Shown in pieces: positions 8,110 through 11,299 of a stretch of DNA of 23,036 nt; the first letter of the stretch is position 1; every line of letters starts with the position of its first letter. A program made the position numbers and the translations under genes. The DNA is from a virus. Below the pieces are notes generated by a model. The model did no database searches. It saw only the letters and a program-made list of their open reading frames with translations, and had not been told where the DNA came from. The stretch lies in IMG/VR virus record IMGVR_UViG_3300045988_079349; one strand, 5' to 3'.

Positions 8110-8652
8110 TTATTGTATTCTGTCAACAATTATTGCTCCTATAGAATTACCCAATGTAACTACTATTAGAAATAATATTATATCAATAGAAAGCACACCA
8201 GCGGCCAAGGCATAACAAAGATCGGCAATGCAATGTTCTCCACCGAATAATATAAAGCCTGTTACACAAACTGGCACCATATAATCTTTATTTCTCTTAA
8301 ATGAAGATACTGCCGAATATATAAATATACCACAAACAATTCCTTTTAGGAAAACTAGATATAGCGGAACTGCAATCTTAGCAGAGACCAAAGATAGAGC
8401 TGCTGCGTGCGGAAAAGCTAAAATCCCGCACGCTCCAATGATATTTCCTGATAAAATAATAAGATTGTCTTTTATATCATTTTTGCTCTTGATATAACCA
8501 ACTGAACCAGTAAACAACTTAAACTACATATTTAGTATGGTTAATAAACCAATGGAAAACATAATAGCTCCAACTATACCACCAACAGACAAATAGATAT
8601 AGCTTGCTATTGCTATCATTATTCCTCCAAAAATACTTTTTACGAAAATCAT
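8110..8652 (-). CDS. Formate/nitrite-transporter (FNT)-family-like small membrane channel. About 180 codons; the N-terminus lies upstream of the ORF-track ORF, across TAG 8524-8526.
   Basis: Three FNT signature regions align with FocA: GGIVGAIMFSIGLLTIL..KLFTGS (FocA GGICFSLGLIL..DLFTS), LSGNIIGAC (FocA YFGNLVGAL) and FGGEHCIADL (FocA SGFEHSIANM). ATG at 8650-8652 immediately follows the nrdG stop. Confidence 0.5.
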
Positions 8653-8654
8653 TT

Positions 8655-9122
8655 TAGGTAGATTATCTTCTAATTACGACTACCCCTTAGAGGCTCTGTA
8701 ATATCTCTTTCATTTTCAATATATGGCCCATCAATTAGCACATCAGTTAATTGAAGTATATTCTAAATAACTGTATCTGTTGTTTTTCTTAAATCTTCAT
8801 ACAAGTATCCAGTCCATAGATAAACCTTCAAATCAGGAATTGTCTCCTTTGCGGTTTGTATTACTAGATGGGTTAAAAATGTATTTTCTGGACATAATGG
8901 TTCGCCGCCCATTATACATAAAGTTCTCTTAATTCCATTAGCAGTTAGCCCTTCTAAGATTGAATTAAGAGTTTCATGAGTAAATTCTCTGCCACTATCA
9001 AAATCCCAAGTCTCTTGATTATGACACCCTTTACATCTATGGGGGCATCCTTGAGTAAAGAAACTCAAGGATACTCCGGGAGCAGCAGCAAAGTCATTTT
9101 TTATAATACCTGCATACTTCAT
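8655..9122 (-). CDS. nrdG: Anaerobic ribonucleoside-triphosphate reductase activating protein (radical-SAM activase). Extended past TAG 8763 and TAG 8670 to TAA 8655.
   Basis: CPHRCKGC radical-SAM cluster motif. The read-through C-terminus DVLIDGPYIENERD...GGSRN-Q-KIIY matches the conserved NrdG tail (RGSSNQRLID), with TAG sitting on the conserved Gln. ATG overlaps the nrdD TGA. Confidence 0.9.
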
Positions 9123-11299
9123 TCCATATACCCCACATGTTTAACTCTATTGTTTACTTCATCCTGCTTTCCTTTATTAAAGGCGGTCTTGTAGTTACCA
9201 GTTAGATAGCCTGTTACCCTTCTTAACTGTTGAATTTCTTTACTACCGCACTGAGGGCACTTATCATTAAACTCGCCAGTATATCCGCAATTTAGGCAGG
9301 TGTCACATGGAACATTTATTGCAAAGTATGGAATATCTTTATCCATAGCATAATTTACTAATGTCTCCATAGCATCAATATTCTTTTCCATGCCAGTATC
9401 TAACTCAACATAAGTAATACAACCAGCAGAAGAATATCCAGTTAATTGACTTTCAATATCAATTTTATCAAATGGAGAGAGTTGGTGCCATACTGGTACG
9501 TGCATAGAATTAGTAAAGAACTCTCTATCGCTTACATTAGGAATGATACCATACTTATCACGGAATTTTTTAAGAGAGGTATAGCAAAGATTCTCGGCTG
9601 GAGTATAATATACTCCGAAATTAAGTCTATATTTTTCTTTATACTCTGCGCATCTATCTTTAAATAACTGCTCTATTCTTTTTGCTAATTTCATGCCCTC
9701 TGGCTCAGTATGATCACATCCAATAAGAATTTGTAAAGTTTCTGCCAATCCAATCTGCCCAAGACTCAATGTGCCATGTTGTAAAGCACTTCGAGTAGAA
9801 ATTCCATCATATCCAGCCATTAAGCCATTTTCATACATGAATTTTGCCGAATCCGCAGGTTGCGCACAGATATATTCAAATCTTTCAAGAAGCATATCTT
9901 TCGCTTCTTCGATCTTAATATCTAAAAGTTTCATAAAAGTTTCTACGTCACCATTAGCTTCCATTGCTATTGTTGGCATTATAATAGTAACAGGACAGAT
10001 ATTTCCTCTACCGTCTTTCTGTTGCTTTAAGCCGTTAATATCGAATCCATTAGCAGTTCTACATCCCATTGTAGAGAAATATGTACTTGGATCGTTTACA
10101 TCATATCCGGCATTGCCAGACCAATCTACATTAGCATAATTAGGATATAATCTAGTGGCAGTAGACTTTAATGCTAATCTAAATAAATCGTAATTTGGAT
10201 CTCCAGGCTTCCTATTTACACCTTTCATACATTGGAAAATTCCACAGGGGAAAATTGAAGTCTTGTGAAGTCTACCAAGTCCTTCAATAGAGACTTCCAG
10301 AAGAGCTTTAGTAACCATTCTTCCTTCTGGAAGAGTACAAGTTCCATAGTTAATAGAAGTAAATGGAAGTTGATTGCCGGAACGAGATTGAAGAGTATTT
10401 AGATTATGATACATTCCCTCAACCGCTTGATGAACTTCCTTTTCTGTCATAGCGATAGCATATGAATATGCGCCTTTAAATTCCTTATAGATAGGATCTT
10501 CAATAGACAGTTGATTATTTAATCTATCATCCATGCTAATGACTTGTTCGATATATGTCAATCCATCCATATAATGTTTATAGAAACTTTTTCTTACATA
10601 AGGAATCATAGTCCAATCAAGATGTGTAGCAGAAACGCCACCAAACTGCTGTAAACTTTGAAGCTGAAAGATTACAGCAACAAGTTGAAAAGCTGTATTT
10701 ACTGAACCCGCTGGTCGTACATCAGTTTGTCTTGTATTGAATCCTTTTGCAAGCAAATCATCAAAAGGAATAGAAAGACAGTTATGCATACCTACTGCAT
10801 AAGCATTTAAGTCATGAATATAAATCTCATTATTCTCATGGTTTGCGCGTGATTTATTAGATACAAGATAATCAAGAGCGTACTTCTTCATTTGCAAATC
10901 AGAAGCTGCACCAACTCTTCCGCCGAATGACATTTCATCAACATTAGCATTTTGATTCTCTATATCTGAACCCTGCACTTTGGCAGAAAAGGCTTTCATA
11001 AAATCGTCTTGCCCTTTTCTGGCAATTTCTCTTTTATATCTATATCTAATGTATGCTTTAGCAACGTCTCTCCGCTCAGACTTCATAAGAAAATCTTCCA
11101 CCATGTCTTGAATTTTTTCTACAGAAACCACATCGTCAGAAGTTTTTACTGCATACTTAATTTCATCTGCAATATCATTTGCAGTATCATCTTCATATAA
11201 TTCTCCATCTACTTCGATGAAGGCTTTATTGATAGCGTTGATAATTCGTTCTCTATCAAATGGAACTACTATACCATTTCTTTTCTTTATTTGTAACAT
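9119..11299 (-). CDS. nrdD: Anaerobic (class III) ribonucleoside-triphosphate reductase, 726 aa. No TAG.
   Basis: ATP-cone-like N-terminus, glycyl-radical motif RRVTGYL near the C-terminus, C-terminal Cys cluster CDTCLNCGYTGE...CPQCG. True start is ATG 11297-11299 with SD aaggag 9 nt upstream; the ORF-track start is an upstream TTG. Confidence 0.95.
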   Translation of the reverse strand: MLQIKKRNGIVVPFDRERIINAINKAFIEVDGELYEDDTANDIADEIKYAVKTSDDVVSVEKIQDMVEDFLMKSERRDVAKAYIRYRYKREIARKGQDDFMKAFSAKVQGSDIENQNANVDEMSFGGRVGAASDLQMKKYALDYLVSNKSRANHENNEIYIHDLNAYAVGMHNCLSIPFDDLLAKGFNTRQTDVRPAGSVNTAFQLVAVIFQLQSLQQFGGVSATHLDWTMIPYVRKSFYKHYMDGLTYIEQVISMDDRLNNQLSIEDPIYKEFKGAYSYAIAMTEKEVHQAVEGMYHNLNTLQSRSGNQLPFTSINYGTCTLPEGRMVTKALLEVSIEGLGRLHKTSIFPCGIFQCMKGVNRKPGDPNYDLFRLALKSTATRLYPNYANVDWSGNAGYDVNDPSTYFSTMGCRTANGFDINGLKQQKDGRGNICPVTIIMPTIAMEANGDVETFMKLLDIKIEEAKDMLLERFEYICAQPADSAKFMYENGLMAGYDGISTRSALQHGTLSLGQIGLAETLQILIGCDHTEPEGMKLAKRIEQLFKDRCAEYKEKYRLNFGVYYTPAENLCYTSLKKFRDKYGIIPNVSDREFFTNSMHVPVWHQLSPFDKIDIESQLTGYSSAGCITYVELDTGMEKNIDAMETLVNYAMDKDIPYFAINVPCDTCLNCGYTGEFNDKCPQCGSKEIQQLRRVTGYLTGNYKTAFNKGKQDEVNNRVKHVGYME

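Follow-up and report, generated by a model that had tools for sequence, protein, structure and literature searches.

A minimal FNT-family channel gene in the nrdD-nrdG operon of a gut phage, a candidate formate inlet for anaerobic ribonucleotide reduction

[quoted passage not shown] Sequence comparisons, a structure model and surveys of phage and bacterial loci point to mini-FNT as a formate uptake channel feeding NrdD in a gut phage, a reading to which we assign a probability of about 0.6.

The operon and its reductase

The operon comprises three genes and two junctions.

9119-11299, minus strand: nrdD, class III anaerobic glycyl-radical ribonucleoside-triphosphate reductase, 726 aa, no in-frame TAG
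9119-9122, minus strand: ATGA overlap in which nrdD stops (TGA) and nrdG starts (ATG), as the sequence itself shows
8649-9122, minus strand: nrdG, radical-SAM activase of NrdD, 157 aa, in-frame TAG (Gln) at 8763-8765 and 8670-8672
8649-8652, minus strand: ATGA overlap in which nrdG stops (TGA) and mini-FNT starts (ATG), as the sequence itself shows
8110-8652, minus strand: mini-FNT, 180 aa, in-frame TAG at 8524-8526, TAA stop at 8110-8112

A first-pass annotation of this DNA had proposed the three-gene nrdD-nrdG-FNT block on one strand, and the sequence bears it out. The same annotation placed a nrdG stop codon TAA 3 nt from the ATG of mini-FNT, which was a frame error, as the true stop is the TGA that overlaps the start. 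Because ATGA overlaps occur at both junctions, the coupling is tighter than that annotation stated. The ribosome-binding site of nrdD, AAGGAG, lies 9 nt 5' of the ATG at 11299. No terminator-like site was found inside nrdD-nrdG-FNT on the coding strand; otherwise the promoter and terminator scans gave matches at or below shuffle expectation and added nothing to this absence. The three genes are probably carried on one transcript. Pairwise comparisons of mini-FNT genes at dS of 0.5-1.0 gave a ratio of nonsynonymous to synonymous substitution rates (dN/dS) of 0.05-0.09, showing strong purifying selection. The in-frame TAG of mini-FNT is codon 43, a position that varies among homologs.

A start at Met12 of mini-FNT, used by several gene callers (the 169-aa proteins P0001-P0006) and preceded by GGAGGA, was rejected because residues 1-11 (xxxKSIxGG) are kept in phage and bacterial homologs, align to the first transmembrane helix (TM1) of the Escherichia coli channel FocA and complete that helix. 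The Shine-Dalgarno-like GGAGGA is formed by codons 9-10 of mini-FNT (GGA GGA; window 8617-8628, minus strand) and lies 5 nt 5' of Met12. The Met12 start in public gene calls cuts off half of TM1.

Searches with phmmer against the Protein Data Bank (PDB) placed the NrdD of Prevotella copri closest to the window NrdD (8p23, E = 1e-121), with T4 NrdD at 7e-73 (1h78). The key residues of the enzyme are C174 in beta-strand-1, the finger loop T410-M-G-C413 with the thiyl C413 (TMGCR), the glycyl-radical motif RRVTG697YL and a zinc site, CDTC...CPQC. The formate requirement of P. copri NrdD has been shown experimentally, and this enzyme has two catalytic cysteines and N435 at the position where the thioredoxin type has a third cysteine (PMC11226230). 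In the window NrdD, N433 (RGNI) aligns to Asn435 in place of the third cysteine; of the two residues that mark the thioredoxin/glutaredoxin-dependent subtypes, a third cysteine or a glutamate, this comparison covered the cysteine. Since the window NrdD is closest to the P. copri enzyme and has Asn433 at the third-cysteine site, its sequence assigns it to the formate-dependent subtype (NrdD1 type), and the premise of a formate-using class III reductase in the first-pass annotation is upheld. NrdG, with its two TAG codons read as Gln, reaches 137.4 bits against NCBIfam TIGR02491 (cut-off 126.1) and matches Pfam Fer4_12 (6e-37) and PHROG 626 (9e-46).

In two related loci the nrdD gene is interrupted (L010, 3423-4557; L011, 2730-3862) by ~1.1 kb placed exactly between Gly412 and the catalytic Cys413 (STMG/CRTANG), with small open reading frames (ORFs) inside. 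The Thomasclavelia phage TR-TP1 also has a split nrdD with an HNH endonuclease gene (L099, 6878-7825). The interruption has the appearance of a homing intron inserted at the codon of the active-site residue, as is known from T4 nrdD. The Rfam group I intron models gave no match at the gathering threshold on the L010 and L011 insertions.

Fold and pore of the short channel

Mini-FNT scored 56.9 bits against Pfam PF01226, the profile of the FNT family (TCDB 1.A.16; gathering threshold 34.6, E = 2.6e-15), with residues 2-175 covering profile positions 21-232 of 240. The invariants of the FNT family are present as T48 in LFTG, E139-H140 in EHCIAD and G168-N169, so that the hallmark regions noticed in the first-pass annotation are confirmed by both profile and motifs. 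A profile built from 32 homologs matched, in the PDB, the hydrosulfide channel HSC (9e-8), LCIA (2e-7), NirC (9e-7) and FocA (1e-4 to 1e-3). PHROGs contains no family for mini-FNT.

The structure was modelled with AlphaFold (AF2) on the full-length homolog P0009, which is 72% identical to the window protein; the model has a predicted local distance difference test score (pLDDT) of 95.8 and a predicted TM-score (pTM) of 0.89. Its helices span residues 2-22 (TM1), 24-40 and 46-52 (TM2), 56-78 (TM3), 96-118 (TM4), 124-135 and 140-149 (TM5) and 155-178 (TM6), TM2 being interrupted by the omega loop and TM5 by the S loop. In a Foldseek comparison of this model with the PDB, the top 50 matches were all FNT channels (query-normalised TM-scores of 0.76-0.90), the best being HSC, FocA, NirC and PfFNT at 0.84-0.90. 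A non-FNT fold had been named in the first-pass annotation as the outcome that would speak against the assignment, and the model matches FNT channels only. The 180-aa protein is, on this model, a channel of the six-helix, aquaporin-like FNT fold. As an FNT channel it would assemble as a homopentamer.

Residues were mapped by hhalign of the family alignment (A1, 32 homologs) to E. coli FocA and by HMMER alignment to HSC (3tdo/3te2). The FocA reference sequence was validated against PMC5525234, all residue numbers quoted there matching the expected letter. The equivalences in TM4 were set by the HSC alignment and by the 15-residue spacing from the vestibule lysine to TM4, as hhalign to the single FocA sequence misplaced a 4-residue gap there; the spacing, counted directly, is 15 residues in mini-FNT, HSC and FocA alike. 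The pore residues lie in three regions.

8509-8559, minus strand: TM2a and omega loop, F32 (8557-8559), L36 (8545-8547), L46 (8515-8517) and T48 (8509-8511), equivalent to FocA F75, L79, L89 and T91
8320-8379, minus strand: vestibule lysine and TM4, K92 (8377-8379; FocA K156, HSC K148), G108 (8329-8331; FocA N172) and I111 (8320-8322; FocA V175)
8221-8256, minus strand: TM5a, S loop and TM5b, F133 (8254-8256), H140 (8233-8235), A143 (8224-8226) and D144 (8221-8223), equivalent to FocA F202, H209, A212 and N213

The constriction residues, a check of which the first-pass annotation had proposed, are canonical by alignment. The central constriction is FFHA (F32/F133/H140/A143, aligned to FocA F75, F202, H209 and A212), and the cytoplasmic slit is LLT(V/I) (L36/L46/T48/I111). 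N70 in TM3 and N169 in TM6 form the invariant asparagine pair of the family (FocA N121 and N262). The constriction, the slit, K92, N70 and N169 are invariant or nearly so across the 32 homologs. The roles of these residues in FNT pores and the FocA/FdhC/HSC signature have been described (Mukherjee et al. 2017, PMC5525234). Relative to FocA, every loop is trimmed in mini-FNT.

The small size of the protein is a property of a large subfamily. The close homologs (n = 66) are 107-202 aa long, the full-length ones 166-202 aa, and a search starting from the most distant one retrieved 2,890 further proteins, the best 120 of which are 198-230 aa. The only NCBI name of these proteins is 'formate/nitrite transporter family protein'. 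When 1.84 billion cluster representatives (50% identity) were searched exhaustively with a profile, 294 matched at E <= 1e-30, nearly all of 176-220 aa, a range that includes the 180-aa window protein and bears out its description as a minimal FNT.

Genomic settings and the formate reading

Scanning IMG/VR for the pattern of the family alignment yielded 102 confirmed viral stretches; of these, 80 loci were kept and searched with the window proteins by tblastn. In ~74 of the 80 loci nrdD lies within 6 kb of the mini-FNT gene, and nrdG nearly always does too. The survey of nrdDG-FNT synteny suggested by the first-pass annotation thus shows the linkage kept over 32-98% FNT identity and in several gene orders. 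The order nrdD-nrdG-FNT is that of the clade of the window, nrdD-FNT-nrdG is found in a second large clade and in L054-L056 and L066, and FNT-nrdD-nrdG in L068; L071 has an opposite-strand arrangement and L050 a 4-kb gap. The linked loci span TAG-recoded phages, FNT genes without an in-frame stop and FNT genes with in-frame TGA. The exceptions to the linkage are L049, in which the FNT gene is at the end of the contig, and a single clade made up of five contigs, each ~130-200 kb in size (L061-L065). Mini-FNT lies on a phage genome, among phage genes, and is kept in related phages, as phage auxiliary metabolic genes are. Its relatives in GenBank phages are one unannotated 4.6-kb fragment (MT839063) and a distant gene of the phage phAss-1; the cultured Thomasclavelia phages TR-TP1 and TR-TP2, which alone among GenBank phages have an nrdD related at the DNA level, have no FNT.

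Several other features were observed in these loci. The mini-FNT gene of L089 (6001-6534) has three in-frame TGA codons, one of them at a glycine of the homolog in L067 (LAG-TGA-IYL vs. LAGGIYL), which suggests that TGA encodes glycine (code 25-like) or is otherwise a sense codon in that phage. L089 retains the order nrdD-FNT-nrdG, and the L068 FNT gene (6001-6552) has one in-frame TGA. In the L061-L065 clade, mini-FNT lies ~1 kb from a full-length sodium:dicarboxylate symporter (SDF) gene (L062, 3863-4912; Pfam E = 4e-81), a second transporter on the phage genome. An extra ORF for an acidic, Cys-rich protein of 211 aa lies between nrdG and FNT in L001 (5382-6017), has three in-frame TAG codons and matches no Pfam family; equivalent gaps are present in L032, L036, L040-L046 and L107-L110.

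Bacterial mini-FNTs from Clostridia and from metagenome-assembled genomes (MAGs) of Ruminococcaceae are 37-40% identical to the phage protein, have the same truncated architecture and invariant residues and form a clade apart from the phage proteins in a rough neighbour-joining tree. In all seven loci examined (five look-ups), the bacterial gene lies between purM and purN. The order of these operons is purE-(purC)-purF-purM-FNT-purN-IMP cyclohydrolase-purH-purD-purL, L017 and L023 being partial, and fhs (formate-tetrahydrofolate ligase) follows in two of the three loci that reach past purL. Each of the four operons scanned has, just 5' of purE, a ZMP/ZTP riboswitch detected with Rfam (55-64 bits, threshold 39 bits).

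L020, 4866-4945: ZMP/ZTP riboswitch upstream of purE (Rfam)
L021, 4834-4913: ZMP/ZTP riboswitch upstream of purE (Rfam)
L096, 3174-3257: ZMP/ZTP riboswitch upstream of purE (Rfam)
L097, 3119-3220: ZMP/ZTP riboswitch upstream of purE (Rfam)

With these elements, an FNT-family gene falls within the ZTP regulon. The riboswitch reports a shortage of 10-formyltetrahydrofolate (10-formyl-THF), and its regulon includes the formate-making pfl and the formate-using fhs (PMC2864571, PMC7266159). A separate scan of genome contigs returned mostly mis-binned phage contigs and four distant bacterial or MAG loci, whose contexts are odd or uninformative: trkAH, a sigma-factor-like gene, queA/tgt and a phage-like contig in a Saccharibacteria bin.

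Formate is the best-fitting substrate because it is the only known FNT substrate that is consumed in both the phage nrdDG and the bacterial pur settings. In the proposed mechanism, the phage would co-translate NrdD, NrdG and the minimal pore, and the pore would insert in the host membrane as an FNT-type channel. Formate would be the substrate, the direction would be inward and formate would be limiting in infection: external formate or formic acid, present in the gut lumen, would flow into the infected cell, and NrdD would oxidise it to CO2 while deoxyribonucleoside triphosphates (dNTPs) are made. The synthesis of dNTPs would then be freed from the formate supply and the regulation of the host. 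The host's own mini-FNT, under ZTP control, would be off when purines are plentiful, which may be the rationale for a phage copy. NrdD of the formate subtype oxidises one formate to CO2 per ribonucleotide reduced. Replication of the genome therefore needs a large formate flux; IMG/VR contigs near-identical to the window phage are 133-148 kb, which corresponds to ~0.27-0.30 million formate molecules per genome copy (by arithmetic, one per nucleotide on two strands). The pore histidine that would serve uptake is retained as an invariant residue, and the corresponding His209 of FocA is needed for formate uptake and not for efflux (PMC8914244). The first-pass annotation had also spoken of retaining formate, which is not an action of a channel, and uptake is the sensible reading of that proposal. 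A wider version, which we hold tentatively and would put slightly below even odds, is that mini-FNTs are a dedicated formate-uptake family, ZTP-induced in gut Clostridia at formyl-THF shortage and captured by large phages into nrdDG, and that phage DNA synthesis in the anoxic gut is formate-limited and fed by formate from neighbouring fermenters.

Several observations weigh against formate uptake for NrdD. Formate transport by the short subfamily is something that we infer from sequence and context. HSC and NirC are nearer to mini-FNT in sequence than FocA, and the FocA equivalog TIGR04060 is not reached (18.1 bits, cut-off 290.1), nor is the 'fnt' subfamily model TIGR00790 (26 bits, cut-off 232.3). 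By sequence mini-FNT is an FNT but not a FocA, and its substrate therefore cannot be deduced from homology. It departs from FocA at two positions neighbouring the pore, at G108, which replaces the open-state asparagine N172 that most FNTs have, and at D144, which replaces N213. The N-terminal cytoplasmic domain of FocA is absent, residue 1 of mini-FNT aligning to FocA residue 32, and the C-terminus is short and lacks the FocA C-terminal tail. FocA requires its N-terminal domain for function (PMC8914244), and the gating of mini-FNT must therefore differ. On a 197-kb contig of the L061-L065 clade (both L062 and L146), the FNT gene is ~57 kb from nrdD. The count of ~74 of 80 overstates the number of independent events, as some loci share descent. 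In the converse test, made on the 80 viral loci with the most similar NrdD (>=69% identity), mini-FNT was found within 5 kb of nrdD in 27 and was lacking there in 53. Because only 27 of these closest loci have it, mini-FNT counts as an accessory to the nrdDG module; it undergoes gain, loss and reshuffling, but is kept beside nrdD where it is present. Finally, a 206-aa mini-FNT (Pfam 54.6 bits) of a Clostridiales MAG with 54% GC (L015, 4774-7719) lies between queA and tgt, two genes of queuosine tRNA modification, a context of which the formate hypothesis gives no account.

The bacterial operons also bear on the possibility that formate is imported mainly for one-carbon metabolism, in which host Fhs would convert it to 10-formyl-THF for purines and, via FolD and thymidylate synthase, for thymidylate (dTMP). 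The pur operons under ZTP riboswitches, two of them running into fhs, fit this use, as does the distant FNT of phAss-1, which lies in a block with FolD, dUTPase, DNA ligase and ExoIII. However, no fhs, folD or thymidylate synthase was found among the identified products of the window and the syntenic loci, several small window ORFs lying outside the scan, and in phages the gene has stayed within 6 kb of nrdD through several rearrangements in nearly all loci. We regard one-carbon metabolism as unlikely to be the main use in the phage, and the two uses are compatible with each other.

Less likely still is an FNT channel for another small anion (hydrosulfide, nitrite, bicarbonate or lactate), which might remove a compound harmful to the oxygen- and NO-sensitive NrdD and NrdG or handle the CO2/bicarbonate produced by NrdD. 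By sequence, HSC, the algal LCIA (deposited as Low-CO2 inducible protein LCIA) and then NirC all come ahead of FocA. In the pur pathway, carboxylation of AIR (5-aminoimidazole ribonucleotide) consumes CO2 or bicarbonate; bicarbonate would thus fit the bacterial context via purE. FNT pores are also alike across substrates (PMC5525234). However, hydrosulfide and nitrite have no role in ribonucleotide reduction or the ZTP regulon, CO2 is membrane-permeable and abundant in the gut, and formate is the sole FNT substrate consumed in both contexts. A role without metabolite transport, in which the protein is co-opted for membrane depolarisation, superinfection exclusion or lysis timing, might suit a short, very hydrophobic protein that has no PHROG family and lacks the regulatory termini of FocA, but is very improbable given the conserved pore lining, the strong purifying selection, the full FNT fold predicted for the modelled homolog, the location of the gene in a replication/nucleotide module rather than a lysis module, and the keeping of the subfamily within biosynthetic operons by free-living bacteria.

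The source of formate for class III reductases during phage infection has not been considered before. The joining of a channel gene with nrdD-nrdG, seen in many uncultured gut phages, implies that viral DNA synthesis in anoxia can be limited by the supply of reductant and not only of enzyme. If formate uptake for NrdD is correct, phage productivity would be tied to formate cross-feeding in the community, and mini-FNT would be a reductant-supply auxiliary gene that mirrors the channel/glycyl-radical pairing of focA-pflB. The hypothesis makes a specific proposal of ecological significance that can readily be tested, and it gives a testable function to a large subfamily of short FNTs (at least 294 clusters at 50% identity). 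A natural FNT of ~180 aa without an N-terminal gate would also be useful for studying how the pore works.

Genetic code, neighbouring genes and known systems

When TAG is read through, ORFs of 100 codons or more in the six frames add up to 27.8 kb instead of 17.5 kb, and a 1,305-codon DnaE frame and other replication genes are recovered. At conserved positions where the window has TAG, homologs carry glutamine: NrdG codon 151 is Q in 73 of 75 homologs, Gmk codon 129 in 33 homologs and DnaE codon 927 in 35 homologs. TAG is therefore most likely a sense codon reassigned to glutamine. Its usage is very uneven, with 13 in-frame TAG codons in a RecJ-like frame (18105-19859, minus strand), three in gmk, two in nrdG, one each in the FNT gene and DnaE, and none in nrdD and the dUTPase gene. 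Because TAG is absent from nrdD and present in both other genes, NrdD could be translated before the code switch, whereas this would not be possible for the NrdG activase or the channel. The window was found to contain no tRNA gene at all, and thus no suppressor tRNA is encoded there.

The window is a phage replication/nucleotide module encoding DnaB, a primase-like protein, a RecJ-like protein, a phage lysozyme, a RecD-like helicase, DnaE, Gmk, NrdD, NrdG, FNT, dUTPase and RuvC. The genes next to the operon are as follows.

11366-11917, minus strand: gmk (guanylate kinase), with three TAG codons in frame, immediately upstream of nrdD and co-oriented with it; Pfam Guanylate_kin on the syntenic gene in L001 and L018, synteny by tblastn
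6654-8073, minus strand: downstream block travelling with the module (three small ORFs and the dUTPase gene), by synteny
7729-8073, 7466-7732 and 7222-7479, minus strand: small ORFs downstream of the FNT gene, function not assigned, travelling with the module; synteny kept in L001-L012 and L024-L058
6654-7271, minus strand: dUTPase, from a Pfam dUTPase hint on the syntenic gene; synteny in L001-L012 and L024-L058

A Pfam scan of the three small ORFs 3' of mini-FNT gave no family, and Rfam found no riboswitch in the window or in the two phage loci scanned. On the opposite strand, two frames were noticed: 1392-2099 (plus strand), which contains five in-frame TAG codons and an N-terminal motif resembling that of resolvases, and 5327-5656 (plus strand), a short protein with an HExxH motif. 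The precomputed matches of L001 at the corresponding positions are Resolvase and a weak Peptidase_M78. This opposite-strand block beside the replication module hints at a temperate or plasmid-like lifestyle. In a related 137-kb phage (L018, 1-4678), a LAGLIDADG endonuclease ORF divides the DnaE gene, pointing to an intein or an intron.

The FNT family, formate-dependent NrdD and phage nrdDG are already well known; the pairing of a minimal FNT subfamily with nrdDG is new. The first-pass annotation called such a coupling unreported. This stands as far as no paper was found that links a phage FNT to NrdD, nor any on the short FNT subfamily, its pur-operon site or its membership of the ZTP regulon, within searches that leave out most subscription journals. 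It does not extend to phage FNT genes as such, because the FNT of phAss-1 has been tabled and a cyanophage focA-nirA pair described.

The closest parallel in arrangement is the E. coli operon focA-pflB-pflA, in which an FNT gene likewise shares an operon with a glycyl-radical enzyme and a radical-SAM activase. FocA and mini-FNT are of the same family and fold, and FFHA and LLT(V/I), the His/Thr pore pair, the vestibule lysine and the two asparagines are kept. However, PflB makes formate whereas NrdD consumes it. FocA is also longer (285 aa vs. 180 aa), with an N-terminal helix of ~30 aa that binds PflB and gates the pore and has no counterpart in the phage protein, as well as a C-terminal tail and long loops that are absent from mini-FNT; G108 and D144 replace its N172 and N213. 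HSC (FNT3, the Clostridioides difficile hydrosulfide channel, PDB 3TDO) is the best solved relative both by sequence (E = 9e-8) and by fold (TM-scores of up to 0.90), and its L82, T84, K148, F194 and H201 align with L46, T48, K92, F133 and H140 of mini-FNT. HSC is larger (~256-268 aa), having an N-terminal extension and longer loops. It is linked to sulfite reduction, whereas mini-FNT is linked to nrdDG.

Among phages, a cyanophage from an oxygen-minimum zone carries focA beside nirA, a phage-borne FNT that has likewise been read as an auxiliary metabolic gene. In contrast to mini-FNT, this focA is full-length, of cyanobacterial type, paired with a nitrite reductase and read as a nitrite transporter, and it is unconnected with ribonucleotide reduction (Gazitua et al. 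2021, PMC8115048). The phage phAss-1 (OQ749652; PMC10607447) resembles the window phage as a TAG-recoded gut siphophage of Clostridia type with DnaE, nrdDG and an FNT-family protein. Its FNT differs in being ~225 aa long, in sharing only ~27% identity with a bacterial mini-FNT and in lying ~27 kb away from nrdDG; the supplementary tables of PMC10607447 list the protein with no remark, and GenBank labels it 'hypothetical'. The mini-FNTs of the Clostridia pur operons share the truncated architecture, and differ from the phage proteins in being bacterial, placed between purM and purN, under ZMP/ZTP riboswitch control and, in two operons, followed by fhs.

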